Shown: piece by piece, positions 7,155-52,623 of the stretch
How positions within the stretch are numbered: the first letter of the stretch is position 1
How the letters are laid out: every line of letters starts with the position of its first letter
Origin: Folioceros fuciformis
Lineage: Eukaryota
Length of the DNA: 55,472 nt
Assembly: GCA_049999805.1 (NCBI GenBank)
Contig: JBNGIO010006162.1
Coordinates: 192,110 to 247,581 of the forward strand
Reading direction: 5' to 3'
Notes under the pieces: generated by a model
The model's input: only the letters and a program-made list of their open reading frames with translations
The model's database searches: none
Told to the model about the DNA's origin: nothing
Program-made: the position numbers and the translations under genes

Positions 7155-10100
7155 TCATTTACCGGACACAGGGAGAAAAGAAGCGAACAGGCCGCGAATG
7201 TGAGGATCTGCCATGAACGACGTCTCCCACAGACCCAGCCCCGAATTCCTTGCAAGTTCAATGACAGTGACCTGCAAGCCCCAAGGATGAGGTCTCCGGG
7301 CTACGTACCGCTCAATCAGCACACGAGCAATCTGTTCTCTCCATGTCTCGTCCTTGAACTTGGCAAACAAATACAGCAGCACACATGAAAAGTAGTGCGT
7401 GTGGCTGTTTGGGTAACGCAACTGATCCGCCAGAGCACTGCAAAACAAATGCCGGCCTTCCCTGTCCAGTTCCACCATCAACGAGTGGAAGATGGCCATG
7501 GGGGCATTCCTGCCAATCTGTTTCGCTTGTGAATCCTGAGTTGGTGACTGCAGAATCTTAATCGCCTCAATGCCCACATGCAGAACCAGGGCGCGTAACA
7601 AGGGTACGTTGTACTGAGTACCTGCCTTCCTCACCTCATCCTCGGAGAGCATTAGCCGTTGCTTCAAATTCAGGGTGGAAGAAACAGACTCAGGATGCCA
7701 TGTCCTGAGGTACTGGTCCACTTCCGATTTCAGGTCATCATCTCCTAGCCCAACATCAGACAAGATGCGAGGGGCCACCTTCATATCTGGCAGCATATCC
7801 ACTTTGAGATTCGCAGACAACGGGTCGGGCAATGTGATACTCCGAGGAAATGCACTCAATATCAAGTTCCGCATCTGTATGCAAGTTGGAGGGATCTCCC
7901 CACAAAGACTGAAGTAATACGCACAGAGAAACTCAGGGAAGTCATGGACCAGGACCAGAAGCACCCTCAGTGTGCCCTTGTATAAGGCCCGCATAGACTC
8001 AGGCAAGACAGCAACCCTCAAGGAAGGTTCCATGAAACGGAGATGGACCACGAGCAACCTGTGAAATAATGCCCACCCTGACTCGGCACTGCTTAATAGC
8101 AACCTCGGCATAAACTTGCGATGGCTCACCAACTCCCACCATGCAAAGGTCCAGGAAGGTAGCCTCGACGGCTGGAGAGCCAAAAATGCATTTGCAAACG
8201 TGGAAAGAATCAGCCCCTTCGCGGTGTCCCACTCTGTCCCACTGAAATCTATAAGCCACGTCACAAACAACCGGAAATATAGCCGAGGGTGAAAATTGTG
8301 CGTCTTCTCATCCGCATTTTTCTGAATGACATGAACAGTTACCCTCAGGATCTTCTTCACGAGATTCACCCCAGCCATTTTTGGCTCTCCTGCATCCCGC
8401 TTAACCAACAGCACCACCAACTTGGCAAAGGTGTCAATAGCTGCAAATGACAGACCCTCCTCAGTCTGGAATAAGCTCACAGGTGGAGCATCTGAATTCA
8501 GGCTATGAGTCACAGCAAGCTCCAACAAATTTTGGAAAAACAGATCGAAGGTGTCATCTATATCCAGAAATCCAGAACGTTGCAGTTGAGACATGTACTC
8601 CATGCAAATCTTATCGCTGGGTACCGCAGCAGTCTCACAAATGACCATCCACTTCTGAAAAAACCGGGCAGCCTGGTCTCGAAGGCTTGCCTGCTCACGG
8701 AGGCTAGCACCATCAAGAACCACGTTGTCACCACTTGCAAGCAGGGCTCCACCTTCTTTCTGCTGCTCTGTACCAGGGTACAACATAAGCTTCTGTGCCA
8801 AGTTTCCTTCCCTCCCAGCGACCCCTCCTACCACAGCTCCGGATGGAACATTTTTGCCCTCCTTCAAAATGTCCCGCAGCACCTTAGGGGAGCCAGGGCG
8901 TTGTGCATAACGTTGTAGAGCATCATTCACATGCATGAAGTCCGTAGAATTAACACCACCCTTTTCAGTGTCTAGGTGCCGGAACATAAGGACTGCAAAC
9001 TTGACAAAAGCCGTATTCCGCCCACTCTCTATTAGCTTTGCCAAATACTGATCATAAGCAGGCACATACATGAGCTTGGCTCGGATGAGATCCGCGACAA
9101 TTTTGGAGTTCAACTTCTTGTCCTGATCTGATGGGTAAATCATCCACTTTGTTATCTCCTTCACCAGGCCACTAGACACATCCCGTAGAGACTCCAGTAC
9201 AGACACATATACTGAGTAGTGCAGGTGACTTGATGGCTCCTCAAAAATTCGCCTCAACACCTCCTTTAGCACAGCTATAGCTGCTTCATCTCTCCTGACA
9301 CAGCGACTGACAACCTCTGCAATTCTTGCTGGAAACATCCACACATCATGGTCAGGGGGAAATGTAAGCACGCCAAACGCATTTGCTTTTGGCACGGCTG
9401 TTTCCAGGTCACGCAGATGAGCCTCGCACTGCTCCAGTGCCTCTGCTGTTGAGAAGTTTGAGACGTTCATTGCCAGACTATCATCCAATCCCGAAGATGG
9501 CAGGGATGTCACAGGACTGACTGGATTCCCATTCGATTCAGATGTTAGATCCAGCAAAGTGGCCCCATCCTCATTGTGACTTGGTTTTTTATCCTGCAAT
9601 TGAATCGCCTCATCAAATAGAGCATTTGACACAAAACCCATTGGCAGACGTGCAGAGGGATCCAGCTCTTCATCAGGCATCTCTGGGAGATGCACACCAG
9701 AAATAGGCTCTGCAGGAAAAGAGTAGCCTCCTGGTTCTGGGAACGGCCCAGGGGCAGTAGCAACCTTTGCAGCCATCACATTCTTCTGAGGAAGAAGAAG
9801 GGCATATCCCTCATAAGCTTGTTGCCAAGAGTTTGAAGACCTCACAGTAGTTGGCTGCTGCACATCATGACTCTGCCGAGAGAATCTTGATCCTTCAAAA
9901 CCGGAGCCCTCGAAAGGGGACCCTGCCTGCCTCCTTGCAGCCTCTGTTTCTGCTAGCTTCTTCATCCTTGCCAAAGCAAACCTTATAGTGGCGTCTTCTA
10001 CAGCCCCAAATCCAAGACTCAGATTATCGGTAGTGACAAGCTCGACAGCTTGTCCTAATATTTCGCCTTGTATATTCAAACCTTTGGACAGCATCAATGC

Positions 10101-13100
10101 AATGTTATTGTACATGGCATTCCGAAATAAGTCCTTGCAAAGCCCTGCTAGACGGCTTGACAGACCTGCAACCATGATGTATGCAGCTTCCTGTGCAGAA
10201 CTAGGATCTTCTCCTGCATAATCTTTCGCCACAAGAACCGTTGTCGTCTTGCAAGCAAGGACCAGATAGTGCTCCAAAATATACTGCAATGTTTCCTGAA
10301 TGGCTTTCTCCATGCCTTTCTGGACTAGAACTCGAAACTTCTCTCCACAAGATAACAGCCTCTGATTCATTATCACACTGGGCGGCACCGACATAGTACT
10401 AGGAACAATGGAGCTAGGTGGCTGATAAGAGACACCAAGATCAACACCTAGTTGTCCTGACCTTCGCATTCCATGGGCTGAGCCTGAATCTTCATAAGAA
10501 GGCGCCACAGGCGTCACATGAGGTACAGAAATCCACGACTTGCCGATTGTCACACCTGAGGATGACACATCAGGGGGCGGCTCAACCTGTACACTAGCTG
10601 ATTTCTCTTCCTTCACAACTACCTGCTGGGAGACTACAGTGCTTCTCCATCTAAAATCAACATTGCCTTCTACTAAATGCGTCCGACCCACAAGCAGTTC
10701 TGATGGCCTTACAGTCTGCAATTCCACATTGATGTTTTTAAAGAGGATCTCAATCTCAAACTGCAGGTTCTTTTGCAAGTTTTCCTGGACATAAATCTCA
10801 GCAAGTAGACCAAGGATGGCTGTTGTCCAAGGATTAGGAGGCCGGTAGACATGGGAGTTCTGACATGCCTCCAAGATCTTGCACGTGAAAGGAAGCACAG
10901 CAAACATAAGTCCCTTTTCGTATGCCTCTATGAGCAAGCCCTTCGGATCCAGGTCTCGAGCTCTCAACACTTGATTTCTCCCTATGGTGAGCTTGCCCAG
11001 CCAGGCACCAAGATGCTTCAAAAGAGATCTTTCTCCCGCACTACTCCTGAGAAGCGGAGAATTTAAAAGAACTTTGCAATTCTCGTAAGTAGCTTGGATA
11101 ACTTCATTTAGCAGACTCTTCGTACTGATAGCATCCAGGAATTTGAGATACAGATCATGGAAATTGGGCTCAATACTAGCCCTCTCAACAACCAAGTACT
11201 GAGCAAACCAGACGAGATACTGATCCTGCAAGACAGCTTTAATCTCCTTTGCTTTAAGCTCAAGATTTCCAGTCGAAATGTTGTTAACTATAAACGTAAG
11301 CTTACTCCGAACCTCAGAATCAGGTGTTGGGATTGATGACTTGCTCCTGGCTGCTAGGAGAGTGTTGATAGGAAGGGCATGGCCCATGGAGTCAGAGGTC
11401 TGATCCGCTTCCACAACTGATTGGGCTGAGGCCCCATTACTCGCCATTCCCCATCCAAGCTGCCGCCCTTGTGGACTTCCACGAGTATCCTGCTGAGATA
11501 TATCATCCAACCTCTCCGATGGCAGCTGACCTCCAGATTGGGATAATGGCGGCAGCTGCTGCTGTGATAGAGATATCTGCTTCACCTGCTTCGGCACCAC
11601 TAGAGTATCACTTGCCAGCGTTGCAGAAGGCACATTCTTTACAAGTTCAAGACCTGGAAGACTTGTCATATTTGGGTTCAAGGGAGGGACTGTGATTCCG
11701 GCTATGGATGCTCCTTCTTCTAACAGCGGTGCCAACTCTCCGTAAGCCTCCCTTGGGTACCCTAGCTGCAGAATTGCCTTGCAGAACCCAGGAAAAGACA
11801 TCAGCCGTTCTTTGCATTGTTCCAGCGCAACCAAGCCAAAGCTGAACAGTTTGGAGTGCATAGGATTTCCCAGTGCGGCTTGAATATATCTGACCCCAAG
11901 CTCTGTAGCTTTAGGAGAAACCTGAATGAGTGACCCAAAGGCACGTGCTATGGCATGCCGCTCCTTCTCCTGTAACTCTGGAAATCGCATAAACTGGTTA
12001 CAGAGGGTCCTGAGCATCACATCAGGCTGCTCATTCAGGCTACGAAGTGCACCCTTGAAGGCTTCTGTCCCGGAGCCTGTCAAAGCCAGCCACCACTCCG
12101 ATAAGTTTGTAACAGGCAGACAACGACCAAGAGTTTGCGAGGACAAACTGCAAATCAGGGAATCAGGTCAACTCAAGTCACAGAGATGTGGAGGAGCAAT
12201 ATACCTTCCAAAACAACTTTGAAAAACACCGCCTGCACGGGCAGAGGCAGAGGACCTGACACCGGTGACGACCTCCCTGGCTCACTCTCTGCTGCTTTGC
12301 TTTGCAAGAACATCACACAAGCCCGCAACATAACATCCTTTTGAAAACCAAGGTGCTTCTCAAGCCACCTCTCCAGATCGGCTAAGCTTTCCTTCCAATG
12401 CATGACAGCAACATCAATGGAGAAAGAAAATGGAGCTGCATCTAAAACGTGCTGAAGTTCCTCCAATTTCAAACATTGCTCTACAGATTTAAGAGCGGTG
12501 TTTGGATCCCTGGCATGCACGCTAATCAGAGTACGAGTCACAATGTCAGAATTGGCACGCCACAGCTGGCGCACATTGGACCTGTTGCTGTCCACATTCT
12601 CTCCAAGAATAAGCTGGGGCACGAGCATCGTTGACAAATCCGTGCGCACAACATTCCACTCGGTTTTTATGGCCGCCACCTTCATCATCAACAGCCCGGG
12701 ATTCCAGTTCACGAGGTTCTTCAGTACTGGACGCAAAGAGCCAGCATGGCCCATCTCTGCCAACTGGCAAAGCACCGCTGACATGTCCAGCGAGTTCCAC
12801 TGTTGAGCATCATAGGGAGACTTGCAGTCACGCCAACCCTTCTCATCTGACTGTTTATCTGGCGTGAGCGGATACGGAATCCCATCGGAAGAACCTGCCA
12901 ACGCATACTTGAGAAACGAGAGCTGGGCGTCGTGGTTCTTCCACACCCGTCCCACCACCCGGTGAATGGGAAAATTATCCTGTGACACCTCCTTGAAGAA
13001 GGAGAGGAGTGCATCAAACGCCTTCTGATCAGGCACAACGAACCCCTCGTGGTCCAACTGCTCCATCACCGCAACCCAGTCCAAATTGAGATGACACCCT

Positions 13101-14077
13101 TGGAGAGTATCTCGAAGCACATCCACATCCCACGCAGTCAAGGAGTGACTCTCGGCAGCCGGCAGCGCCGATGTGCTGCAAAACGCCTGGGCAAAAGGGC
13201 CGTACGTTCCAGCAGCAGGATCCAGGCCTGCGTGCGTGCGTGCAACCATGCCCACCACCTTGGCAGCCTCAGCCTCGGTGATGGCAGGAAAAAGCGAGAA
13301 GAGCTCGGTGCACCGTTGCCGGTCCGAAGCACACTCGTACCCCAGCTCCTCCGCCACATGGGCAACATCTGAGGCCCCGGCCAGCTCCTCCATTAGGTCA
13401 TTGCGGCCGAAGTACGAGTCCCCCGCCACCTGCTCGAAAGTCCGCAAACAATTCACCTCACTCCCCTCCCCAACCCCGAGCGGCGCCAGCAGCAGCGACT
13501 GCTCCGCCTTCCGCTGAACCTCCGGCACAGACCCCAGAGACGCCAAAGAAACCCGCCCGGCCCGGCCAATTCGGTGCAGATGGCACGACAGCTGGTGCAG
13601 CAACTCCTCCGACAGCTCTGCACCGGAAGCATGCAACAAATCCGCCAACACCTGTGCGCAGAACCGCTGGCTCTCCCGACGCCGGCTCTTGTCCTCAGCA
13701 CAGCCCAGCGCAAGCCCTAGCAGCAGTCGCTCCGGCAGCCCCAACTCCAGGGCCTGGCACAGGTCCCGCAAGAACTGGTCGCTGAGGCCCCGGATCTGCC
13801 GCACCGCCTCGCACAGCAGGGTGGGAAAATTCGGCTGCGGCAGAAGCTGCCGTATCACGCTCTCCAGCAGCTTTCGCTTGAAGCTCACCTCCCCGTCCCC
13901 CTCGGCCCCCGCCTCCTCCACACACCCTGCCTCCAGACATTCCCGCAACACCGTCAAGCTCCCATTCAAACCGCCCCCCACCTTGTTCAGCTCCCTGGCC
14001 TCCACATCCCCGTTCCCGCTCCGGCCGGGATCCATCGACTCCACATGTCGCCCCAGCCATGTCCCCAGGCAAGCCAT
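7155..14077 (-). CDS. NOT1: CCR4-NOT transcription complex subunit 1-like (NOT1), divergent, two exons, ~2264 aa
   Basis: ORFs 12173-14206 and 7155-12146 join through a phase-1 GT-AG intron at 12204-12077 (GAAG|GTATAT...TTTGACAG|GC). The spliced length is 6795 nt, in frame. NOT1 motifs include the CAF1-binding region (FIVNNISTGNLELKAKE, WFAQYLVVERASIEPNFHDLY, YRPPNPWT) and the C-terminal Not1 domain ([41 protein letters not shown]). The ATG at 14077 was chosen by N-terminal resemblance. Confidence 0.92.
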
Positions 14078-15169
14078 GGCCCCTGCACTTCCCCGCAGCC
14101 TGCTGCTGCTCTCACCCTCTCCCTCTCCCTCCTCCTCCTCCCTGGCTCCGAATCCTGTCCCCCGAGCCGAGGCTCCTCTGGTCAGGCTCCTCTCCTCCTC
14201 TCGCACCCGCTCTCAGCTGCCAAGCCGTCCAACCCACACCGTGATTCTTGCGCTCCCTCTGCTCCCGCCTAGACCAGCCTCGCCTACGGCATCTTGCATG
14301 CACAGCCGTGAGCTCTGCAGCTCGCCATGGTTTTCGACTCGTGTGGCAATCTGCTGCCCGCCCTGCTCCTGGCTCACCGTCTCACACAGGTCAGAAGCTT
14401 CTGGAGACCCCGCTGGTGCTGCCGCTGCTGGCGCCCAATTCGGTGAATGCCGCCGACATGCCGGAATGCAGCAGTACTATAAAAACTGGTTACTCAACGT
14501 CTCTCTTAATACAAACCTACAGTGCTCCGTTTGAGTATTAAGAGAAGGAGGAGGCCCTACAAAGCCCTTGGCCGTCTTAACGCCCCACCAAAGAAAACCC
14601 ACAACGCCTGGAAATAGCTAAGCATACATACATACATATATAGAGATCCCCCGCATGCGCCTGCACTCGTTGTCTCTCCACCTCTCGCTTTTACTCTTAA
14701 TTGGAATATAAATTACTTCGTATTCATTATTTATTTTAAAAAAAGAGAGCATGTAGTGTGATAGTCACATCATGTGAGTCGGATTATAAGTAAGAAATGT
14801 TCAGAGTTACCTATAGAATATGCCAATGAGTCTAAGGAGCATAAGCCAGTGATTGGATATGCATCCTTGTTTTAGCCTCTAGAAAGATTATGTGCTGAAA
14901 GACTTGGTGCACACTTTTGTGTTTGTGACATGAAGGTGCTCTCCATATATGTCCTTCTGCACAAGGACACTATTTGAATATGGAGTCCTTATGTTCGGAG
15001 TTGAACTATAATACTAGTATGAAGTCCTCACATTGGGAGTTGAACTGTATGGAACTTCGATGTTGCATTGTCCTTATCTTGGGCATTAGAGTGTCCTTGT
15101 GTTGGGCAGTAGACTACATAGAGTCTGTTTGTATCTTTTGAGTTGGACGTGTCAATATAAATCCTTCTC

Positions 15170-30745: not shown

Positions 30746-33700
30746 TCACCTGTCACGCTCGGCTTCCTGAAGGAGGATCTCATAAATGTCCGTGCGGATT
30801 CTTAGATCCTTGTCGCGCATGATCTCCAAAAAATCAGACTGCTCTTTCGGACTCAGGACAGACTTCAGCTTCTTAAACCCGTCCATCCATAGGGACTTCG
30901 ACCTGCAACCAACAGGAGGATATAGATTCATGAGGCCCATCACATAAGATAACTAATACTGCATTGAGAAACACCATTAAGAGCGCCTGGAAACGCTTCA
31001 AAAGCATCCCCAAGATGGGCTTACCAGGGGCATGCATGAATTGCTCGAAAGAAAACCCTGCGTGCAGCATCTGGGTTGCGGGATACTTGAAGCTCGTATG
31101 CCAAGTACGTTCTCCACAGAACAACAGATTGTTCGGTTGGACTGCGCTCGAGTGCTCTTTCAAGGAAACCGAGTATCCTATGTGCTGAAGTAGGTCTTCC
31201 AAGCTCACAAGATATCGCAAAAAGCCCCAGTATTGTCGATGGAGTCCTGCCAAGAATCAACATACTGTTCAGCGGCCACTGGAAAGTACGACAGTAGAAG
31301 GCACTTTCCAGCGAAGACACAGGCAGAGAGCAACCCACCTGTTCATTTCGTCGTCAAAGAACCGACGGAGGTTGCTTATGAGACCACTGTGGCGAACGTA
31401 TACACCCAGAAGCCTTGGATTGAGAGGATACTGTACAAGGCCCCGTATGGCAATTCGCCGAACATGGGCTGGCTTCACAAGCTGTTTGCTACCTTCTAGC
31501 ATCTCAGCATAGCGTACAAAAAGCCTTTCACATTCCACGCTAGCTTGTCTTTTAACTGCAACAGACCACAATCAGCATGTGGTTGTGACTGCGGATTCAT
31601 GCTCGTTATCTAGTAAACAACTCAACTGGTTCAAAAAGACGAGTAAATTACCCGGTAGGTTCATTGCAAGGCTATCCTCAAAGACGGATGAAGCAGCTTC
31701 CCAGCCTGACCTGACGTGCTCAAACATGGCAGCACACGTTATGAGAGCTGATCCTCTCTCTGTCAACTCAGCTCCATGACATGACTGTCTGATCATGTGG
31801 AGGTGCTCGCCGTATCCCCTTTGAGCCCTCAATATGAATGCACCTGGTACTCCACCAGATTCAGAGAAAGGGGAGAACGTTCCTCCAACCCCTGCAGAGC
31901 AAAGTAGATGCAAAACACGCTGATTGGCAGTGGTTAACCCTTGCCATAGGTCCTGACCAGCCAGCTGAGACATCTCGATTTCCACATAGGAGAGATATAA
32001 AATGGGAGCATCCAGCTGGGCCTCCTGTACAGACCAGAAAACGTCACAAGTGCAAAACATAGCGACAAAGGACGCCATGGACTCACATGACGTAGAGCGA
32101 ACAAGTTACGGGAAAAAGGATTACCATTGAAATGGCAGGAAGGGATGTAAGAGTTGTGTCAAACACGCGTCGTGCCACTTCGATGTTTCCAAATGAGGCT
32201 TCAGTGCGGCCATACACACCCAAGAGAAGATGATCCTGCCATTACAGAACATGAAAACATAATCAATTGTTTCTGTCTGGCAAAGTTGTCCATGTTGCTT
32301 CATGCTACCTACTGAATGAGTATCTCTTGCCTGGCGATGGGTTTTGAGCAGCTTCTTGGCTAAGGCCCGCGTAGCAATTTCAGAGTTCTTGCTGTGACCC
32401 TCGGCTGCTGCGGTTGCTATGCCTTCAAATTTGAAAAGCAAGTCTTGTATGCCCTGATGATGAGAGCAGAAAGGCCTGAGGAGCTTCAGGCAGTTGCGTA
32501 CAAAGTTAGCCCGCCCTTCACCCTGCTGAAACCAGTCAGCATTTCCAACAAGATGTTCCAGCAACACATCCTCTGACTGAGAGTTTCCTTCACCAGCATT
32601 GAACCCTTGGAATTCCTTCAGTAGATCGGATGACAGACCTTCAGTTGCTTCCCATCTTCCCTTGAAAGACACAGAGTTCGTACAGCACCTGCAAGCAAGA
32701 CCGGAAACTCAGGATCGCTCTGTGCCATAAATTATCGTGTGCAAACTATCACCAAGAACTATCTATGTGTTCACTCACCAGTGAGATAGAGGCCCTCCAC
32801 AGAAATCAATGAATTGTCCAACAAGACTGAAACGAGCCTGCTCAGTTTCCAGTGAAAAGAGGTTTTCTCTAATATCCTCAAACAGCACCATGCTCTCTAG
32901 TTGCTCATCCTCAGCATCCGGTTCATCAACTGCTGCGCCATTTTCTGCTCTTCAATAGCAAAAAAATTCAATCACAGTTAAATTATAACACATGCACAAA
33001 GGGTTTTGCCACACAATGCAAACAGAGAACGACCACAAAGGCAATTGCAGACAAACACAGACACCGGCTGACTTAAGCGTTGCTGGCTTCTAATGGTTCT
33101 TCTCAGCAATGCTGAAGTGACCCTTACCAAGCTTTTTCCTGACCGGTAACCATTGTAAACTGCCTCGTCGTGCCTCTTCCTCCGACCACCTCTCCCAAAC
33201 ATATGGATCGTCCACTGGAACCTCCTTTGTTAAATCAATGCTCAAACCTAATTTCTCAAGTAGAGCCGCTTCATCCTCTATGGCATCCTCTTCCATATCT
33301 TCCAGATCATCCCCAGTCGTGTCTAGTTCTTCATCAGGTGGCCTTCTTGACAGACCATCCCCTTCAGCTATGCTGGAGGCTTCAGACCAGCCTGTCCAAC
33401 CACCAACGTCTTGGGCCTCCTCTTCTGCTTCTCTCTTTTTGGCTGCTTGGAGCTGCTCTTCTTCCCTCTCCAACCACAACGCCCACCCTAACGCACCATC
33501 CTCGCCAATGCGTGAGGCACCACTGTCCCAAAATGCCTCAAACAGCCTTTGCTTATTGTGCTCACTTAGTTGAATAGGAGGTGCAAAAATTGCAAACTCC
33601 AGCTCTGCCTGGAACATGCCAATCGCCAGCTCATGGTGGCCTGTTTGCCATTCAAACCGACATAAGTCCAGAAATATGGACACCATTGCTTGTTCAGAAT

Positions 33701-35604
33701 CCACATATTCTTGACTGCTAGCAGTATTTCCTGTTTTCTGCAAACGCGGACATGTTTTCCTTCAATGTCTGTAGTATACCTGCCTACCCACTACGTCAAC
33801 AAACACATTAAAAGGCTTACCTTAGAACGCAGCTGGTTGTAGACACCAGATAGGGCATGCAAAGCTTCAAGGTACCGCCTTCGCATTGCAGAGGCAGAAA
33901 ACTGGGAAAACTGTCCTTTGTGAAAACAAAGATATTCCCTCCACATTCGATAACTTCCTGGATGTCGTCTTACAGCCTGCTCCCACTTGGACAGCAGCAT
34001 AGAGGTATCTAACCGTTTTCTACAAGTTTCCAAGTAGAGAAGCAAGAGATCTTCACTGTCTGGATGTTGCTCAAGAGCTCTCTCCAAGATACATATCTTC
34101 TTGTCGACGGCTTGCTGGATGGCGGCTTTCTTGTGAGTAGACTGTACAAGTTCGTCCTGCCAAAAGGATCCAAGCCGCATGATACTTCAAGTGTCTACTA
34201 CAACTTGTATTATCATGATCACCACTGCAAGAATACCGCAAGAAAGTCAAATGATACCTGAAACAGTGCAAAGGCAGTCCATATAGATTCGTCATATGGC
34301 CTTTCACGAGTCAGCTGATTGAATTCCTTGGTCTTCCGATTCATGGATTCTTCCCAGCTTTCCTTCACCTCAGACCTGAACTTCTGCTCTTCTTCCACTT
34401 CCAAAGAAACGTAGGCATTCTCTACAAAAGTCCCCTCAGTCTTTCCTGCTCCTTGTGTTGAAGGCGAGTAGATACGGACACGTTTAAGATTGCTCTGTTT
34501 CTCCAAGGCCACAATTTTTGGATAGAAATAGCGAGCCACAGGTTTCAAACTGCCTTCCAGATCAAAAGAATTATCATCGTCCTCTGTAAAATCGAACTTC
34601 CGTTTTCCAGTTGAAAGATGCGCTCCATTTACAGCTCCATCAGTCCAACGGCGTCGGTAGTTGGCCACATCCATCCTGGATGTAGTGAAGAGACACATAA
34701 GCATTTTTGACTGCAGGAGATTACACAGGGCAGCATCACTAGATGGGTAGCATTGGCGAACTTGAAATCCTACCTGTAAAGACACCCAAAGGCAAGATTG
34801 TCCCTGTCCCCCCGAATATCAAAATAGTACACTTTCTGAGCATCAAGTTTCGAATCAGCCCAAGCAGAAACGGTAGATTTCCTCTCCACAGAGGTCCCTT
34901 GCAAAGATCCAATGGCTTTTTCATCCACGTAGCTGACGCCATTCTTGTGTCGAGCAGACCTCTTCTCCTCTTCTCTTCTCCGTCTTCGCCTTTTTCTCCT
35001 TTTATGCTGCCGAGGATCTTCTGCTTCATCGCTATCGTCCTCCGAAAGCTGCTCCTGTAAGTCATCAGCTGCAGCAGAAATTTCACCCGCTTGACCTACA
35101 CCCTCAACCTGTCCTACACCCTTCGCAGACACAGAAGGGGCAGGGACAAGGGTCTCTTGGAAGCTGAAATTCCGAAGCCACTCCGGAACATCTTCCTGGG
35201 ATAAACCAGCTTCCTGATGCATGCAACCAATCCTTCAATTGCCACCCCATCCATCAAGAACCTAACCTAACGCCATCCACCCCTCTGCTGACAGAAATTG
35301 ACGAGTCTCAAACAGCATTGCAATCGAATGCTCTAAACAAACAGGACAATTGACTTACACTCGCAGAAGACGGAAGCAAAGATGCAGCAGCAGCTGCTGC
35401 TGCTGGAGCTGAAAAGGACGAGAAACTTGTGAATCTGACTGCACCCGGATCCTGGGATGAATTCGCAAATGTGTTGCCTGCTTGTTGCGCCTTCGACAAG
35501 ATAGGGAACAAGGTCGAAACTGCCACCGCCTCCGATTCCGCGCCGGGAGTGCTCTCACCTTCTCCAGACGCCATAGCGTCGGATTCACCCACGGGAGGAA
35601 ACAT
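30746..35604 (-). CDS. NRDE2: Nuclear exosome regulator NRDE2 (HAT/TPR-repeat), multi-exon
   Basis: Motifs in order: YYFDIRGDRDNLAFGCLYR, KTKEFNQLTRERPYDESIW, KKICILERALE, LCRFEWQTGHHELAIGMFQAELEF, FEAFWDSGASRIGEDGALGW, RRVFFRAIHACPW, SKSLWMDG and IMRDKDLRIRTDIYEILL. They are separated by short introns. Confidence 0.93.
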
Positions 35605-39716: not shown

Positions 39717-40750
39717 TCAGTATCGGTCATCATAAGAAGAACGGCTTCCTCCACCAGTCGTAGCACTTGGACGGTCATAGGGACCAGAGCGGTCCCGGTG
39801 GCTTCCTCCCTCGTACCGGGAGGGGCCTCCACCACTGTAACGATCACTGCTTCCTCCACCACGGCCTCCTCCATCTCGGGCTGAGCTTGAGCGGCCGCCA
39901 CCACCACTGCCATAGCGGTCACCACCGTTGTGCCGATCTGAAGACCGCTCACTGCGCTCACTTCCATAGCGGCTGCCACCATAGCTTCCACTGCCGCTAC
40001 CATAGCGGTCACTGCCACCATAGCGATCACTGCGGCTGCTCCCGTAGCGGTCACCAGAGTATCTGCCCCCACTGCCACCGCCTCCGCTGGATGGACACTC
40101 CCGAGCCCAATGGCCTGGCTGTCCACATTTGAAGCAGTCACCACTCCCCCCACTTCCGCCTCCTCCACCACCATAGCTCTTACCACCACCATTGTAACCA
40201 CCTCCTCCACCATAACCCCGATCGCCTCCACCACCACCTCCAGTTTTGGGTTGAGCCTTGTTCACAGTAATGGGACGGCCATCCAAATCCTTGCCATGCA
40301 TACGCTCAATAGCCTCATCCATAGCACGCTCATCCCCAAAGGTCACAAAGCCAAATCCCCGCGAGCGCCCAGTGTCTCTGTCTACCACAACCTGTCGAAG
40401 GCAGCAAGAATTCAGTAATCACAGCACATATTACTCAAGGGTCAGATGGATGACCAAAAATAACCGCGACCATAGAGCGGGACAACAACACCGGACCAGA
40501 GACCGACCTCCCCTTCTGTGGAGAGAAACAAGTCGGAGCCGACGAGAAATACTTACGGACAGTATTCCCGCCGGCTACGATGCTTTACAATGAACGAACA
40601 AAGTAATGAAAAAAATCACGAGCCAAAGACGGACACCACCTTGGCTTCAGAGACAGTTCCGTAAGGCCGAAAAGCATCTTCCAGCGCTCTGTCATTGGTA
40701 TCCCATGACAATCCGCCAACAAAGCAGCGGAACTCCTCCGTGGCCGCCAT
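39717..40750 (-). CDS. RZ1: Glycine-rich RNA-binding protein RZ-1 type (RRM + CCHC zinc knuckle + Gly/Arg/Asp tail), 261 aa
   Basis: Exons 40750-40640 and 40391-39717. RNP2 CFVGGL, RNP1 RGFGFVTF, knuckle [14 protein letters not shown] and C-terminal RSGPYDR. A likely 5'-UTR intron lies at ~41298-40761 (CAG|GTGAGC...TTTTGCAG). Confidence 0.95.
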
Positions 40751-41669: not shown

Positions 41670-43507
41670 ATGGCTGCAGCGGTGAGCTTCCTCGACTTCT
41701 CGCCTGTGGTCGTGAGCGAATCGATCGTCTCACGTATTTGTGTCGTCTCAAAGTATGTGTGTGTTGCTTTCTTGCAGGGAGCGTGTTGCGCGCGTGTCGG
41801 CTCGGCTTCGTCTTCCCGAGCCAGCGAGACTCCAGCTTCTACGAGCTCGTCGCAGCGATTCTCCGCATTTGCGGGCTTCAATGGCCTCCGAAAGGAAAGC
41901 GGCGCGATTCGAGTCGCGACTACGCGACTCGAATCGACGGCGGCAGGGGCACGGGGAAGGCATCGTGCATTGCATGTGGTGGCCATGGCGGAGGTGGCGG
42001 CCATTCCCGCATTGAATACCCTGCCGTTCGTGAACTACATAAATGGGCAGGGACGGGTGCAGCCGCCGGTGGAGGGGAACACGGCGGCGACTGTTTTTGC
42101 GGTGTATGATCAAAACAAGAAGATTCAATACATCGGGTTTTCCAAGGATGTGAGGAATTCGTTGAGGACGCTGCTGTGCCGGCGCCCGGAGCTCTGCTAT
42201 TTCTACAAGCTGTTCAATCTGCCGGCTCTGGACCAGCAGCACATGCTTAATATCAGGCAGCAGGTGGGTGTTTCGGGTGTTGAGTGGCACAGGTTTGTCG
42301 GGGAATGTTGGTGTTGATCCGAGGGGGTGGTGGCGGTGTGGCAGTGGTTTTCGGAGCTGGGGTTGCCGCCGACTGGGAACAAGGATCCTGTCCAGAGGAG
42401 TATGTGGGAGAAGCCGGCTGATGCTGGATCTATTTCGGAGAGGGGGAAGGCGGCTGCGGGGAAGTCCAAGGCCAAGACTGTGCTGCAGATCCTGGCGGAC
42501 AGGGGGCTGAAGGAGACGGTGAGGCATTGCATTCTGCAGGCTGAGGGAGCTGGCGGTGTGTTGGAAAATGGTGGTCACTTACAGTGTGGATGTGCCGTGT
42601 CTGGTGCAGATGGAGTTCGATCCTGTGCTTTTGGAGCAGGGTCTGGTTGATGTGCTCCCGGTAATGTTGCCCTGTCTGGTGGCTTCCTGTGCTGGAGTCC
42701 AGGTAGCTTGAGGAGGTGGAGGTGATCTGACTTGCTGGAATTGAATACATGGTTGCACCAGGCCAAAGGCCCCACAGCAGAAGAGCTTGCAAGTGCTGCC
42801 GAGGCAGAAGCTGAGCAGGCAGCCAAGAGGCGGCAAGTTTCTTTGACAGCCCCTGATGGCGAGGTCGTCGAGTTCGAGATCGTGTTTGAGGCCAAGTACA
42901 AGACCAATGGGGGTTGGATGTATGACATCCTGGTGAACAAGGACGACAAGGAAACTAGGTGAGTATTGCTTGCCTGGGTCAGTGAGACTGACGTTGCTGG
43001 TGCCCGAGAACGTGAGTAGCATCCATCACTTTGTCTGGATCGTCAATCAAGATGCGTTTTCTGTTTGCATATGGCAGGCATAGAGTGATCTGTGGTCGTA
43101 TTTATCCCGAGTCTGTCAACATTCCCGAGGACTCATTTGTGGAGAAGGTGATGGGCTTTTTGCTGGTAAGGAACATACCTTACTTGTACGTGATATGGAG
43201 ATGGATGTCGCCTTGCGAAGCAGGAAACACTTATCGGCTAATTGCGCCTCTGATGCAGTACAAGAAGATTCAAAGGAGAACTGAAGGTCTTATGACTGGA
43301 GAACAATTTCCCATCAATTATTTTGCTGTGTCAGAAGTTGCCCAAAGACATGACGACTTTAAAGAATGGTTTTCTGGGCAACTTCCGGACAGCTACTGGC
43401 GATTCAATAGGATTCACGCCTACGGTGCAGAGATTGATCCAGCCCCTAATACAGGTCCTACAGATCTCATAACCTATGACCTTGTACCTCAGGCGCAGTC
43501 GTCCTGA
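41670..43507 (+). CDS. Putative plastid protein: GIY-YIG-like domain (GRXS16 N-terminal/cyanobacterial type) plus uncharacterised C-terminal domain, 7 exons
   Basis: Exons 41670-41681, 41778-42263, 42345-42518, 42610-42660, 42762-42958, 43078-43165 and 43259-43507, all with GT-AG introns in consistent phase. Ser/Ala/Arg-rich transit-peptide-like start, then ATVFAVYDQNKKIQYIGFSKDVRNSL...RRPELCYFYK...WFSELGLPPTGN. No CGFS glutaredoxin motif. Confidence 0.85.
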
Positions 43508-43698
43508 TGTTTCTAATTGCTCGAGCCTATTTTGCTCTTTGCGGCCACCCGTCTCGATTAAACCCGATTAGGCAAAGCTTGTAGTTTGGAGTATTGGTGG
43601 ATCAGGACTTTTAAAATTGGGATGGATCCAGTGGCAGTTGTGATCCAGACTGGAGAGTGTCTGAATCCTATTATACATCCCATCCGGTGGGGTTGGAA

Positions 43699-44771
43699 CT
43701 ACTTATGTAAATTTTGGTCTTCCTTGGGCCATACAGTTTTTTCACATGTAGTCTTGCACTGCCTGGCGATAAGCGACAGGCATCGCTTGTACTTGTCAAC
43801 TTGAGTGGTTGGATAGGCCTGATACATGCATGCATACATAAAGAGAACGCTGATCAGCTTGTGCATAGAAGAATAAGGATGGCTAGTAATCTGAAAGAAC
43901 ACTAAATCTAAATATACCCTGTCGCAGGCCTCAGCAGCTGCTACTTGGCATGCCTCCTGGCACATATGAAACTTATCCTCGTTTGATGCGTCTTCTCTGT
44001 TGACAGGAAGAGTAGTTACAAACAAAATCTAGATTTTCAAACAGTGTAAGCCTATCACTCCGAAAGAGTACCTTAATCTTCGGCTTTGGCAGCACTCCAC
44101 ATCCTCCACTTCCAGACAGACATTCACTACCTTCTTAGACGATTGCGCCTACAGGATAGAGGCAACCAAAAGTGGTCAACTTCATGGATCCTGCACAACA
44201 AAGTTGAATGAGTTATTCGCCACATGATGGTCTTGCGGAGCACCTTAGCTTCTGCTTCTGTAGCTCGAAGTTGCTCGACGGTAGGGAGCCTGAACTTCTT
44301 GGCGTAAAATGCTCTCGATACATAGCCGTATTTCCCCCTTGCTGAGAGCAGATTGTTGGACGTCTGTGCACTTACGAGGTAAGCAAGTCAACACTACCAT
44401 TTCGTTTGTCACTCCAGGTTCAAGTAACTGAGATCACGCGCATTCCCATTCCAAAGACGGAAACGAATGCAGTACCTGCCACCTGCTCACAGCGTCTTCA
44501 GTTACGGGTCCGAAAAATCCTGAAGGCTCCTCCGTCAGGTAGCCCTGGCGTTCAACAGCTAACCAACTCAGTCCTTCGTACCCCAAGAGAGAAAAGGCCA
44601 AAAAGAAAGAGGAACTATGAGAGGAAAAGAGACAACCTCATGCCTCAGGTGTTGTTGGAGACAGGCCACATCCCCCCCATAGCTGCCTTGACTAAGGTCT
44701 CGGTAGAAATAGCAGAATTTCCCCTCGCTTCGATCGTCTGTCATTTCTTCCATAAACAGCCACAGTGTGCG
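43699..44771 (-). CDS. Peptidoglycan-binding (PG_binding_1-like) domain protein with Cys-rich C-terminus; N-terminus unresolved
   Basis: Six spliced exons give ...FYRDLSQGSYGGDVACLQQHLRHE|GYLTEEPSGFFGPVTEDAVSRWQ|TSNNLLSARGKYG..., matching the L..GS.G.DV..LQ..L...GY.....G.FG..T..AV..WQ pattern. The tail is VCLEVEDVECCQ...CQEACQVAAAEACDR|AYP...YKRCLSLIARQCKTTC. Stop at 43699-43701. The first visible ATG is at 44753; upstream exons up to ~45445 are possible. Confidence 0.82.
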
Positions 44772-46277
44772 CTACAAGAAATCAGGTCAACACAGCAGAA
44801 TCAGCACCACACCAGCCGGGGCCTTGCGTAGACTGGAGAACAGCGAAGTTTCCGGAGCACTGCTCAAGGGTGAACTACGGGGGGAACGAGTGGAAATTCA
44901 ACGAGCAAACAGGCTAAGTAGCATGAAGCTCACCCGGACAAATACCTTGTTACAAAAGTGTAAAAGAAGCCAACAGGCTTTTGGCTAGATTGACAATCCA
45001 GAGCGGTAACAATTCACGTCCGCCAGCCAAAGACTTGACGTTGCAACGCCAAGACTCCAGCTCACTACGCGCTACACTCTCAGCGAGGAACAAGAAACAA
45101 AAGACCTAATCTGGAATCTCCGCCCAGTGCTCAATTCAAATCTCGCGGACATTCTCCGGCCAGACGCCAGCTGACATTAGGAGAGGAGAAAAATCCTCCT
45201 CCTAAGCCTTCAAACCGCGAGAAATGGCTACACCACTGCACAGCACCGAGCTCGCCTGAATGCGGATGCTTGTCCAAACAGCGACGGATGCCGTTCTTGC
45301 TCCATTCTTCAGCAGGCAGAAAAATACTTTGAGCTCCAGAAAACTCCAAAGAGAAGCGAGTGAAAGCCGTCAACGACACACAACACACGATCTCTTTGAA
45401 CACGGCAAGGAAGCAGCACAGAGCACAGCGAGAGCACGGTAGCATCTGTCACGCACAGTAGAAAAGAGGAGAGCAAACTTTTCTCAAGGAAGCGCTGGGA
45501 GTTTGAAGCGTCTATCTTTTGCCAGTTTTGCCAGCTTTTCCTCCAACGGCTACAAAGTCGCTGGGATTCAATTTTAAATCAAAGGACGTCCTTCCTCCGG
45601 GTCGTCAGCCGGTCACTGGTTACCAGCGTTTGAGGTGTTTTTAGGTGAGCTCATACTAACCGTAAGAGGCCGGCATTACGGCAGAAGGACATACATGTAC
45701 GTATGCATTAATGTCCGTGGAATCTCAGGCATGCGATCGAGTACAGATATGCGTATAAAAAATTAAAGTTTTAATGTGTCTTCTAGACCTTCCGTTTGTC
45801 CGTATGTAGCACAGATAGGTCTCTAGAAGCAAGTCATGCGGGTGTTGGAGCAAGGAAACTGACAGTCTCTTGCACAACACAACACATTCCATCTTCCTCA
45901 ATCTTCGACGATCAACGGCGAGGCATTAGAAAGTGTGCTGTGCGCTGGAAGTCGATCTGTGTTCTTTCAATGGTCGATGAGATTATGTCCGGATGGATAG
46001 AAACCCTACACAACGTCTATCTTCGATGACATCAGTTAAACAACGATGAATCCTGAAGGGCTGGAATCATGGAAACAAGAGAACAAGGGAAAGAGAACGA
46101 TGACATCTCGTGTGCTTTTGTTTGGTGCCCACTGCCCATGGTGTAGTCAAGAATCGATGCAAAGCAGATGTAATTCCTTTCAAAGAGCGTGGAATATACA
46201 AAAACATGGACATGCCTGCAGATTATGGTAGTGGTGAGCTACCATGAGGACAAAAATTGGAAGACGAGAAGCTGCAC

Positions 46278-47087
46278 CTAAGCTCCAGGAGTGAAGTTGG
46301 TGGCATAAGCCCAGGCATTGTTCACACCGGGATCAGCCAAGTGATCAGAGAGGTTCTCAATGGGGCCCTTTCCGGTGACGATGGCCTGGACGAAGAAACC
46401 GAACATGGAGAACATGGCCAGGCGTCCGTTTTTGAGCTCCTTCACCTTCAGCTCAGCGAAGGTGTCGGGGTCGTCGGCCAGACCCAACGGGTCGAAGGAG
46501 CCTCCGGGGTACAGGGGGTCGCTCACCTCGCCCAAGGGTCCTCCAGCAACCCGGTAAGCCTCCACAGCGCCCATGAGGATCACCTGGGAAGCCCAGATTG
46601 CCAGAATGCTCTGAGCGTGAACCAGGCTCGGGTTCCCCAGATAATCCAGCCCGCCCTGAGCGAAGATCTGAGACCCAGCCTTGAACCACACGGACTCGCC
46701 GAAGGTGACTCCGCTCCTGGCCAGAATCTCGGGGGTGATGCAACCCAGAGCTCCCAGCATCGCCCACCGGGCATGAATCACCTCCAGCTCCCGGTTCCTG
46801 GCGAATGTCTCGGGATCGGCAGATAGTCCGGCGGTGTCCCAGCCGTAGTCGCCTGGAAACTCTCCCTTCAGGTACGATGGAGTCTCGACGGAGAAGGGTC
46901 CCAGCCACAGAGGCCGGTCGGCACCGTACCAGACGCTGGAGCTGGACTTGGCAGCCGCTCGCGACTTTCTCATCTGGAGCTTGGACTCGCTGCTGCCCGC
47001 GGCATCCAGGATCTCGCTGCGCTGCTTGAAGACGGTTTGCCCTGCCAGGGCAGCGCTGGAGACGCATGCAGTGGCGGTGGCGGCCAT
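46278..47087 (-). CDS. Lhcb: Major LHCII chlorophyll a/b-binding protein (Lhcb1/2-type), intronless, 269 aa
   Basis: Transit peptide, then MRKS...[63 protein letters not shown] and [13 protein letters not shown]. Confidence 0.98.
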
Positions 47088-47179
47088 AGCTCTGGAGGGT
47101 GACGTTCCGGTCTGTGGCTTTAAGAAGGAACAGGGAGCAGGGACTGGAAGACGCCGGAGCCGGGAGTTGGCTTGTGCTG

Positions 47180-47330
47180 GATGCTTTGTAGGATGGCTCG
47201 CCGATGTGAGCCACGCGGCAGTAACGGAGGCTTGCTGCTGTGTCGAGCGTCTCATTGGCTGATCAATTTGCAGCTGATGAGGATTGGCGCCCGTTAAGCA
47301 GCATTCTCCGCACACCAAACGCTTATCTCG
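47180..47330 (-). promoter_or_regulatory. Lhcb promoter elements: G-box-like CCGCGTGGC, CCAAT box, GATAAG I-box
   Basis: GAGCCACGCGGCA (47208), CTCATTGGCT (47251) and CTTATC (47322). The same motifs occur in the same order upstream of the second Lhcb gene. Confidence 0.6.
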
Positions 47331-48356
47331 GGCTGGAACTTCTCTGTCCTTTGATCCGTGGAGCAGTAAGAGGAGACAGTGGTAAATCAGCGTTTTGTCG
47401 CTCTTGGTCGTCTCCAGGTCGGCATGATGTGTTCAGTGGACTGACACATGATTCGTAGCGTGCATTGGGATTGCAATGGATTGCGGAAGCTACGTTCTCG
47501 GGCGACGTGCGGGGTCCATCCTTACCAGCCTACGAGCGGCCAGGCTTTCAAGAGGTTGAGGTTTCCTTGTTGGGTCAGCAGACCTGCAGCTTTCTGGTGG
47601 TCCTTGCGAGTTCCACACTCTGGTTGCTGGAACTGGGACCGCGAGACGCGAGCATGCCGAGTGCAGATCCTCATTCCTCACTTTTAGTACATGTGCTGCC
47701 TAAAGTGTAGGCTTCGAGGACGACTTGCAGTGGTCTCTTCGAGCTGTGTGTGTGCAACTGGGCCGTCAATGATGGACGGGTCAAGGGGTTGTGAGAGAGC
47801 CTGTGCGTGGTTACAGAATTCATCTCTCACTCCCACATTTTAGCAACATCAGGAGATTCATGGATGATCGACAAAGAATTCAAGGATGTGCTGTCACAGT
47901 AGTCTTGATGGCACTGCGTTTCGAGCAACGAGCATTCAACAAGTCTTGAGCCAAGATTTCAGCACTGCAGTCATTCAACAAGTGTCGTGACAGAATTCAG
48001 CATTGCATTGTCTGAAGGAAGCTGAGGAAAATGCCACGGGGCTGGGGTCTTAAAGAGTGGTATCAGAGTTCGTGCAGCTCGCACGAGTTCTCTGTTGCCA
48101 GAGAAGTTTGATCAGGAAGCAGTATCACCAGCGAAGGTCCTCGACACAATTCTTTGGGGAGGACATTCACATCATTCTGTCCACGAACGTGCTTCTCTTG
48201 TTTGAACAAAGGGTACTACAGAGGACATTGCACAGAACACAGCCCAGCAAGTTTCCATTAAATGATCACGTAATGTACAACTGGCATCTCTAGATCATGG
48301 TGGTCTGCTGCCAGGAGAACGAGCTGAATCTGGAGAACAACAGAGAAGGACTAGAC

Positions 48357-49160
48357 TTAAGCACCGGGGGTGAAGTTGGTGGCATATGCCCACGCGTTGT
48401 TGACTGTGGGATCCGCCAGGTGGTCGGAAAGGTTCTCGATGGGGCCCTTTCCGGTGACAATGGCCTGGACATAAAACCCAAACATGGAGAACATGGCCAG
48501 CCGCCCATTCTTGAGCTCCTTCACCTTGAGCTCAGCGAAGGTGTCGGGATCGTCAGCCAAGCCCAAGGGGTCGAACGAGCCTCCAGGGTAGAGGGGATCG
48601 CTCACCTCTCCCAAGGGTCCTCCTGCCACACGGTAAGCCTCCACGGCTCCCATGAGGATCACCTGGCTAGCCCAAATGGCCAGAATGCTCTGAGCGTGAA
48701 CCAGGCTCGGGTTGCCCAAGTAATCCAGCCCGCCCTCGGCGAAAATCTGAGATCCAGCCTTGAACCACACGGACTCCCCGAACGAAACTCCGTTCCTGGC
48801 CAGCAGCTCGGGGGTGACGCAACCCAATGTTCCCAGCATCGCCCATCGAGCGTGGATCACCTCCAGCTCCCGGTTCCTGGCGAAGGTCTCAGGATCGGCG
48901 GACAATCCGGCAGTGTCCCAGCCGTAGTCGCCTGGGAACTCTCCCTTCAGGTAAGAGGGGGTCTCGCCGGAGAAGGGTCCCAGCCACAGCGGCCTGTCGG
49001 CCCCGTACCAGATGGAGCTGGAGCTGGAGCCGGCCGACTTCCTCATCTGGAGCTTAGACTCAGCGTTGCCAGCGGCATTCAGGATCTCGCTTCGCTGCCT
49101 AAAGACAGTCTGCCCTGCGAGGGCAGAGCTGGAAGCACATGCTGTAGCTGTGGCAGCCAT
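48357..49160 (-). CDS. Lhcb: Major LHCII chlorophyll a/b-binding protein, intronless, 267 aa
   Basis: Complete ORF with the same LHCII motifs as the copy at 46278-47087. Confidence 0.98.
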
Positions 49161-49249
49161 GGCTCTGCAGCTTGACTTCGCAAATTCGAAAAGACAAGCA
49201 GCAATGGCAAAGGAAAGCGGGGAAAGCAGGCGTAGAGAAAACAGGCTAT

Positions 49250-49380
49250 GCTGGATGCTTTGTAGGCTGGGTCGCCGAGGTGAGCCACGCGGCAGGGAAC
49301 CAAGGTTGCTCCTCTCTCCACCACCTCATTGGCTGCTCAATCTGGAGTTGATGAGATGGGCGCCCTCTCTTATCAGCGTT
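49250..49380 (-). promoter_or_regulatory. Lhcb promoter elements conserved with the neighbouring copy
   Basis: GCTGGATGCTTTGTAGG, GAGCCACGCGGCA (~49282), CTCATTGGCT (~49325) and CTTATC (~49369). Confidence 0.6.
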
Positions 49381-50159: not shown

Positions 50160-51051
50160 TTAAGCGCCGGGAGTGAAGTTGGTGGCGTAAGCCCACGCGT
50201 TGTTGACGGTGGGATCCGCCAAGTGATCGGAGAGGTTCTCGATGGGGCCCTTTCCAGTGACGATGGCCTGGACGTAGAACCCAAACATGGAGAACATGGC
50301 CAGGCGCCCGTTCTTCAGCTCCTTCACCTTGAGCTCAGCGAAGGTATCGGGATCGTCGGCCAGACCCAACGGGTCGAAGGAGCCTCCGGGGTACAGAGGG
50401 TCGCTCACCTCTCCCAACGGTCCACCAGCGACGCGGTAAGCCTCCACAGCTCCCATGAGGATCACCTGGGTAGCCCAGATTGCCAGAATGCTCTGGGCGT
50501 GTACCAGGCTCGGGTTTCCCAGATAATCCAGTCCGCCCTGGGCGAAAATCTGAGACCCAGCCTTGAACCACACGGACTCTCCGAACGAGACCCCGTTCCT
50601 GGCCAGCAGCTCGGGGGTGACGCAACCCAACGTTCCCAGCATCGCCCACCGGGCATGAATCACCTCCAGCTCCCGGTTCCTGGCGAATGTTTCGGGATCG
50701 GCAGACAATCCGGCAGTGTCCCAGCCGTAGTCGCCGGGGAATTCTCCCTTGAGATACGACGGCGTCTCCCCGGCGAAGGGTCCCAGCCACAGAGGCCGGT
50801 CCGCACCGTACCTGCAAGACGGGAGCAATGCCGGTCAGCATTCAGAATAACACCATCGCCCAGATCGATATCCCCAACAAATCCAGACCGACGAAGAAAA
50901 CCCACCAAATACTTGAGCTGGATCCGGCCGACTTCCTCATCTGCAGCTTCGCCTCCCCGGCGCCGGCCGCTTTCAGGATCTCGCTGCGCTGCCTAAAGAC
51001 GCTCTGCCCTCCCAGACCGGCGCTTGAAGCGCATGCTGTGGCCGCGGCCAT
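50160..51051 (-). CDS. Lhcb: Major LHCII chlorophyll a/b-binding protein with one intron, 265 aa
   Basis: Exons 51051-50906 and 50811-50160. A 94-nt GT-AG intron splits the Trp codon of [10 protein letters not shown]. Confidence 0.97.
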
Positions 51052-51800: not shown

Positions 51801-52023
51801 TGGAGACCACCAAGTTTTATAGAGCAAAACAAGCATCATTTCATACTTGAGAATAAGTAAGTGAGTCCTGCGCCCTTCGAGGTTGTAATGAGGTTCATTG
51901 CGTGAACAAAGTCCTTGGTCTTTAAAGTTGCAAATCATTTTTAACTTATAGAGCTATAGAATCATCTTACTTGTCGGAACTTGAACTCATGTTGTCATAG
52001 GAGATTAAATTTTGTGATCAAAC

Positions 52024-52623
52024 ATGGTGGATACAATGCATTCTTATGCATCAAAAGTTGAGACGGAGGGCGAGGAAGAACTAGATCATGAAGAAGCTCG
52101 AAGACTTCTAAGGCTTGCTCGACAGAAACAAGCAACAAACAACCTTCAAGAAGCAGTTGCCTTACTACATCAAGTCCTACAACTCCAAGCCAACTCCCAA
52201 TATGTCCAGCAACTATGTGCAATTTTCGAGGTAGAGATTGCAGCAAGAGTAGTAGCAGCCACCAACATGGAACGCTACGGGTATATTCTCAACATCAACC
52301 CATATGCAGATGACCAAGTAGTCATTGCACAATATAGAAAGTTAGCTTTGAAGTTACATCCAGACAAGAATAAACATGAAGGAGCAGAAAACGCATTCAA
52401 ATTGATTTTGGAGGCAAAGGACGGTATTCTTGCAAAAAAAAATGCGAAGGATTTTCTGTTGAGGGTTGACCGTGAAGTTAAGGTTAAAGAGCGTGAAGTT
52501 AAGGTTGGTAGGAGTAATCCTATTAAAAACAAAAATAAGATGAAAAGAAAAAAACAAAAGGTCTTGGATTGCAGCTATCCATTGCATGGTCGAGGAGGAC
52601 ATTGTCGCAAATGTGGCATGTAA
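52024..52623 (+). CDS. Intronless J-domain (DnaJ) ORF, 199 aa; AT-rich, possibly a captured fragment or pseudogene
   Basis: YGYILNINPYADDQVVIAQYRKLALKLHPDKNKHEGAENAFKLILEA is a J-domain with an HPD motif. It is preceded by EEARRLLRLA, resembling the N-terminus of plant DnaJ-DUF3444/DNAJB14-like proteins. Confidence 0.7.
   Translation: MVDTMHSYASKVETEGEEELDHEEARRLLRLARQKQATNNLQEAVALLHQVLQLQANSQYVQQLCAIFEVEIAARVVAATNMERYGYILNINPYADDQVVIAQYRKLALKLHPDKNKHEGAENAFKLILEAKDGILAKKNAKDFLLRVDREVKVKEREVKVGRSNPIKNKNKMKRKKQKVLDCSYPLHGRGGHCRKCGM

Follow-up and report, generated by a model that had tools for sequence, protein, structure and literature searches.

Six coding exons on the minus strand (44771..43699) of the 55,472-nucleotide stretch of Folioceros fuciformis DNA analysed here (the window) splice into one open frame, which encodes a domain of the peptidoglycan (PG)-binding type fused to a cysteine-rich tail. 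The gene belongs to an old, conserved green-plant family that is present in green algae, ferns and Folioceros and is apparently undescribed; the PG-binding fold is known, and it is the domain combination in an ancient family that is new. We propose that the protein is a non-catalytic binder of the plastid peptidoglycan layer, locked by predicted disulfides and reaching the envelope without a leader. This reading is the best single guess yet stays under even odds (a probability of about 0.45), because the family is leaderless and was not found in mosses.

Gene structure and genomic context

The open frame ends with a TAG at 43699, and translation from the ATG at 44753 gives a protein of 193 aa. 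All five coding introns (92, 112, 95, 75 and 99 nt) are of the GT-AG type. In X1, the single run available and presumed to be RNA, one contig extends to 45396 and bridges four of them together with an upstream GT-AG intron of 162 nt in the 5'-UTR (44772..44933, minus strand). No contig bridges the fifth and last, an in-frame intron of 99 nt (43917-43819), two contigs stopping at its edges; the 33 residues that it encodes in frame are missing from homologues. The six-exon spliced gene proposed in the preliminary description is thus borne out by the single open frame, the splice sites and the bridging by a probable-RNA contig. The end of its range, 44771, is indeed an exon edge but not the start of translation, which is the ATG at 44753. 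The bridged isoform has no further coding exons at the 5' end, since its transcript has an in-frame stop just over 23 codons upstream of this ATG. The part of the 5' leader exon that the contig covers (44934..45396, minus strand) is long and holds this stop and three short upstream ORFs, with ATGs at 45305, 45177 and 45152; two of them are in the frame of the main ORF but closed by stops, and they may possibly exert translational control. The genome has one copy of the gene.

All coding exons lie on the minus strand. Exon 1 (44637..44771; contig, splicing and alignment) carries 18 nt of leader and residues 1-39, with the acidic N-terminus, Cys14, Cys31 and helix 1 of the PG-binding domain. Exon 2 (44476..44544; residues 40-62), both joints of which are bridged and whose frame matches PF01471, carries the first G-[YF]-[FY]-G-x-x-T motif and the second helix, and exon 3 (44244..44363; residues 63-102; contig, splicing, homologues and model) the second repeat, the third helix and a linker helix. 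Exon 4 (44072..44148; contig, alignment and model) encodes a predicted beta-hairpin with Cys113, Cys121 and Cys122; the outer cysteine pair of the family (positions 108/126) is replaced in the window protein. Exon 5 (43918..43996; contig and alignment) encodes the first helix of a helical hairpin with C-x3-C-x7-C (140, 144, 152), and exon 6 (43699..43818; splicing and alignment) the second helix with C-x7-C-x3-C (167, 175, 179) and the stop codon. The PG_binding_1-type domain thus spans about residues 14-88 (44286..44714), as placed by searches and models on the orthologue P0013, and the cysteine tail about residues 108-179 (43744..44133), as placed by the alignment and the tail model; each has two introns inside.

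Among the surrounding genes, the convergent neighbour on the plus strand (41670-43510) has five introns bridged by a contig and a transit-peptide-like start. It has a weak UvrC match (E=0.07), in a stretch that we take to resemble the GIY-YIG domain of plastid glutaredoxin S16. One contig extends from its last exon to 43819, and the 3' ends of both genes may overlap. On the minus strand, 46278-47432, 48357-49325 and 50160-50834 are three tandem chlorophyll a/b-binding (Lhcb-type) genes of one open frame each, and 7155-14212 encodes NOT1, the CCR4-NOT scaffold, whose two open frames are very long (1670 and 679 aa) and which has unusually few introns for the intron-rich region around it. NRDE-2 (33090-33761), an RRM/zinc-knuckle splicing factor (39717-40418) and a DnaJ-domain exon (52018-52623) are also present. 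Elsewhere in the genome, exons like those of LCIB, a pyrenoid carbon-concentrating component, were seen (L007/L008, G000:C1919); among land plants LCIB is, to our knowledge, confined to hornworts.

The peptidoglycan-gene context invoked in the preliminary description is found in the same genome, which holds a MurB (109 bits) and a three-exon PBP transglycosylase gene, with which the family gene co-occurs. The other two PF01471 genes of the genome are a metalloproteinase (L002), with signal peptide, PRCG cysteine switch and zinc peptidase domain, and a separate pTAC5-like locus with a CxxCxGxG motif (L003).

A PG-binding domain, a cysteine-rich tail and no leader

When Pfam was applied to the exon frames of the window, the exon 2 frame matched PF01471 with E=2.2e-4 and 21.8 bits, just below the cut-off of 23 bits for this domain. 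Orthologues score 33-39 bits, above the cut-off, and 20 of the 22 rows of alignment A5 match, both non-matching rows being tail fragments. With a family profile made without the window sequence, the spliced window protein scores 267 bits. The first G-[YF]-[FY]-G-x-x-T motif is retained in 20/20 members; the second repeat has drifted in ferns. The AlphaFold2 model of the Psilotum orthologue P0013 (pLDDT 83, pTM 0.80) has a three-helix domain at residues 11-84, followed by a linker helix, a beta-hairpin and two long helices. It superimposes on the N-domain of SleB (6tci) with Z 12.9 and an rmsd of 1.6 over 73 residues, and every one of the 11 chains found at Z>=8 holds a PG-binding domain. A search of the ESM Atlas with P0001 returned PF01471 clusters under 0.9 only. 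Combined, these results uphold the PG_binding_1-like motif that had been read from the sequence.

All nine cysteines of the largely helical tail described previously were located in the 193-aa protein (residues 113, 121, 122, 140, 144, 152, 167, 175 and 179). Modelled alone, the tail of the algal locus L016 is predicted as a beta-hairpin and a helical hairpin (pLDDT 95). No Pfam family covers the tail when the alignment rows are run against Pfam. A Foldseek search of the tail-only model against the PDB gave no match at E<=0.001; the best VIA match (Z 5.3) stands among generic helical pairs, and no CHCH or small Tim entry is among the best 50 structure matches. The ESM Atlas gave no usable match for the tail, and none of the eight candidates passed in a word-indexed search with the tail frame and its in-frame intron. 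As modelled, the tail appears to have no clear known fold; it does not follow from the structure searches that the fold is new, nor that it is a different one.

Twelve cysteine columns are conserved in the family: seven in 18/18 sequences, one in 17 and the four of the hairpin in 13-16. The pattern C3C7C..C7C3C is found in 19 of 20 members; in the window protein it reads C-x3-C-x7-C...C-x7-C-x3-C, and CxxCxGxG is absent. The helix cysteines are mirror-spaced (140+179 = 144+175 = 152+167 = 319), and those of the hairpin are opposed across the strands by register (4+21 = 8+17 in L016 numbering). From this register, which concerns sequence and strands rather than model coordinates, disulfides are predicted between 113-122, 140-179, 144-175 and 152-167, with 14-31 as a further predicted pair; such a pairing would need an oxidising space. 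The hairpin cysteines are lost pairwise in five members (the window protein, P0002, P0017, P0019 and P0042) and singly in three (P0018, P0020 and P0044).

The transit or signal peptide expected in the preliminary description is absent. Judged by N-terminal length and composition, none of the 20 full-length members has one, and all start 5-18 residues before the domain. In the 18 aligned members its first cysteine is preceded by 5-16 residues, for the most part acidic; P0044/P0045, from Klebsormidium and Chlorokybus, have 18 residues ahead of the domain, and the window protein 13, five of them acidic. No hydrophobic N-terminal or transmembrane stretch occurs in 18/18 members, the best N-terminal 11-residue hydropathy being 0.08-1.02 against about 3 in the bacterial proteins. 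In all 11 eukaryotic metagenome loci examined, a Met lies near the domain; an in-frame stop stands 5-25 codons ahead of the aligned start in six, and the open frame is longer in the other five.

It is very improbable that the true protein is longer and that an alternatively spliced or overlooked 5' part supplies a transit peptide for ordinary plastid import. A Ser/Arg-rich upstream ORF (ATG 45152) could join the main frame if a hypothetical intron at 45077-44985 were removed, this being one of 13 in-frame fusions that can be constructed; in the Klebsormidium-like fragment P0086 a Met stands in frame 69 codons upstream, and locus L029 has two upstream Mets. The contig is nevertheless unspliced across 44934-45396, and the eight isoform entries of the transcript-derived Psilotum members start at the equivalent Met after long leaders, none exceeding 192 aa. 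The stops ahead of the start in six of the 11 algal loci, and the Klebsormidium-like fragments P0081 and P0087, which lack an upstream extension, likewise argue against such a hidden peptide.

The family and its bacterial relatives

A HMMER search with the tail frame retrieved two proteins at E<=0.001, from Pteridium and Spirogloea, and searches with family profiles 27 and then 104 proteins. Nineteen of the 104 lie below 1e-40; after these come a few gene fragments and bacterial domain-only matches. The named members are from Pteridium, Adiantum, Ceratopteris, Psilotum, Spirogloea, Mesotaenium (JGI label), Netrium, Closterium, Klebsormidium and Chlorokybus. Identity of the window protein to 17 members is 47-54%. 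The family tree agrees with the plant tree and places the window protein as sister to ferns (94/89, just under the starred support level). An entry from Leptophrys, P0019, branches with Closterium (98/91) and is probably a prey sequence, given what we take to be the diet of this organism.

Among the named proteins recovered in these word-limited searches, the largest of which had 104 rows, none comes from a moss, a liverwort, Selaginella, Chara, a seed plant or Chlamydomonas. This suggests absence from these groups; the first-exon fragments P0065 and P0074, of unplaced lineage, are among the matches. A Physcomitrium knockout, as the preliminary description envisaged, may therefore have no target, no named orthologue having come from the profile searches.

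A metagenome scan gave 20 loci out of 48 pattern matches: 16 GC-rich ones, nearest to the most divergent algal members, three fern-like ones with long introns and one bacterial locus. The GC-rich loci adjoin UFD2, HIRA, RpS26e and prefoldin genes and are therefore eukaryotic nuclear DNA, which we infer to come from green algae of prasinophyte grade. Introns after helix 1 and between both tail helices recur in several metagenome loci. The algal loci L017 and L025 have a common gene order, HIRA, family gene, RpS26e. None of the eight pattern matches in viral contigs was confirmed, and plasmids gave two weak Clostridium matches only. The databases give members the automatic label 'peptidoglycan binding-like domain' and nothing else. 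A description of the family was not found in the open literature, supplementary orthogroup tables lying outside this scope; the six member identifiers searched gave no mention, and the available portions of PMC9954125, PMC7902849, PMC5741210, PMC11135702 and PMC4707469 do not describe it.

The best bacterial matches to the family profile are secreted domains of Patescibacteria type with the same cysteine pair. These forms score 60-70 bits, and PDB chains about 25; several bacterial domains without the pair score as high as those with it. With the pattern used, both cysteines equivalent to 14/31 occur in 3 of 87 bacterial sequences and one alone in none. Bacterial proteins with the pair have hydrophobic, signal-like N-termini, and the pair is also found in L019, L030 and L031. 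The genome of a Ca. Kaiserbacteria holds a relative 77% identical to one cysteine-pair bacterial protein. In a sample confined to Patescibacteria, 13 of 81 genomes match, in the PG-binding domain and linker only. In a domain tree from a quick, unfinished search (43 bacterial rows, none cyanobacterial; 77 columns) the green family is grouped with an SH-aLRT of 90. As the tree is quick, short and devoid of cyanobacterial rows, no donor is claimed.

Possible function and comparison with known systems

The protein carries no enzyme domain; kinase, LRR and hydrolase domains are absent. A conserved surface like those that bind walls, the lack of an enzyme domain and the probable disulfides are best accommodated by an accessory binder. 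The N-terminal domain would grip glycan and the rigid tail would contact an envelope or remodelling partner. The protein would cross the outer envelope only, with no cleavable transit peptide, and folding together with wall binding would hold it between the chloroplast envelope membranes. Its role would be accessory, and the gene would have been lost both where peptidoglycan is retained and where it is not. Of the plastid-wall component suggested in the preliminary description, the wall connection is kept, in line with the PG-binding-type fold and the peptidoglycan genes of the genome, but an assembly enzyme is not, as there is no catalytic domain.

The named hosts lie within groups that have the peptidoglycan toolkit, and no named Chlamydomonas or angiosperm match is among the 104 rows; the toolkit or the layer is reported for Closterium, Klebsormidium and ferns in the accessible parts of PMC13519894 and PMC9434261. 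As far as the available text of PMC8227023 goes, plastid peptidoglycan occupies the space enclosed by the two envelope membranes and its enzymes are for the most part non-cyanobacterial, and a Patescibacteria-like domain is therefore no obstacle to a plastid role. Several observations count against a binder of the plastid wall. The leaderless route to the envelope is its weak step, and a disulfide relay is not known to us from the intermembrane space of the chloroplast. Plastid peptidoglycan is best documented in mosses, and the failure of the word-limited searches to recover a named moss, liverwort or Selaginella member weighs against this reading. So do the lack of any peptidoglycan gene adjoining the family gene at the 10 algal loci scanned, the drift of the second repeat in ferns and the imperfect paired cysteine loss (five concordant and three discordant members). 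The literature searched, including the accessible part of PMC13650779, yielded nothing on such a relay.

Plants also use PF01471 without a known peptidoglycan role, in pTAC5 (PMC4080259, portion available) and in matrix metalloproteinases such as L002. The main rival reading, which we regard as rather unlikely, is that the fold has been turned to protein contacts in this family too, as it has in pTAC5 and in the pro-domains of metalloproteinases; the protein could then be a client of the Mia40/Erv1 disulfide relay in the mitochondrial intermembrane space, or a cytosolic protein with metal-binding or redox-switch cysteines. Mia40 clients are typically leaderless twin-CX3C/CX9C hairpins, and the family protein is likewise small and lacks a leader, its modelled helices form an antiparallel hairpin and its cysteines are mirror-spaced; its distribution follows peptidoglycan inexactly, with no named moss or liverwort match. 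Mia40 is reported to recognise hydrophobic patterns in substrate helices and to drive import (PMC5679390, as far as available). The pattern C3C7C..C7C3C is, however, neither twin CX3C alone nor twin CX9C, and the pairwise disappearance of cysteines is easier to reconcile with disulfides than with metal sites of four ligands. Furthermore, algae and land plants alike retain the glycine/aromatic motif of the PG-binding domain, and a gene serving mitochondria would be likely to survive in a wider range of lineages than the toolkit groups to which the named hosts are confined.

The preliminary description also raised a sensor of bacterial peptidoglycan, here a sensor or binder either released without a signal peptide or intracellular, in which the tail, rich in disulfides, would be a stable effector module. 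The closest bacterial domains sit in secreted proteins, and a compact disulfide-rich tail recalls the extracellular defence proteins, of which such domains are typical. Such a role is hard to square with a gene that is single copy, evolves slowly (47-54% identity between deeply split lineages), follows the plant tree, shows no immune-receptor-like expansion or fast change and encodes neither a signalling domain nor a signal peptide or transmembrane stretch, and we consider it improbable. Little credence is likewise given to the boldest form of the plastid-wall reading, in which a Patescibacteria-type domain and a new cysteine fold would enter the chloroplast intermembrane space leaderless, be trapped there by disulfides in a Mia40-like manner and clamp plastid peptidoglycan throughout Viridiplantae. 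If true, it would provide a dedicated plastid-wall binder and show that the plastid envelope has an oxidative import route not recognised so far.

A ten-enzyme plastid peptidoglycan toolkit has been catalogued, with the holder or reader of the wall and its purpose left open (PMC10784329, in the part available). The family offers a concrete, single-copy candidate wall binder, present in the tractable Closterium, Ceratopteris and Klebsormidium. The conserved absence of a leader with probable disulfides points to an unusual route to an oxidising space or to another use of the cysteines, and the tail is a confidently predicted domain without a Pfam family.

The three-helix fold is common to the family and to wall enzymes of bacteria and phages (SleB N-domain 6tci, CtpB, the Zn DD-peptidase 1lbu and phiKZ gp144; Z 10-13, rmsd 1.6-3.0), as is the motif G-x-F-G-x-x-T. 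Unlike these PF01471 enzymes, the family lacks a catalytic domain and an export signal, and has an invariant cysteine pair and a fused, eukaryote-only cysteine tail. Patescibacteria-type proteins (relative in Ca. Kaiserbacteria, L009; L030; L019) share the pattern C-x-F-x-R-x-L...DV-x-C-LQ but carry signal peptides and unrelated long extensions, none with the tail of the family. Among plant proteins, pTAC5 (At4g13670) likewise combines a PG-binding-type domain with a Cys-rich C-terminus, but it is a nucleoid protein ending in a DnaJ C4 zinc finger (PMC4080259, portion available). Identity with pTAC5, already set aside in the preliminary description, is rejected, as the CxxCxGxG finger and a transit peptide are absent and a separate pTAC5-like gene exists at L003. 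A plant matrix metalloproteinase is rejected too, its signal peptide, PRCG switch and zinc peptidase domain all being absent from the spliced protein. PPASP resembles the family as a non-enzymatic putative peptidoglycan binder, proposed from pathway co-occurrence; it has LysM instead of PF01471 and a membrane anchor, and is reported only in streptophytes (PMC4815162, in the text available). It was rejected because 18 members have no hydrophobic stretch and no LysM match was found. Physcomitrella proteins with a PG-binding domain (PMC3493653, Fig. S50 legend) also show this domain in a non-seed plant, but, compared by description only, their homologues are mainly fungal and bacterial, unlike those of the green-lineage family. 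Finally, Mia40-dependent twin-Cys hairpins (small Tim, CHCH) are like the family small and leaderless, with antiparallel helices and mirror-spaced cysteines; the family differs from them in its three pairs at 3+7 spacing, its extra beta-hairpin and its fused PG-binding domain.
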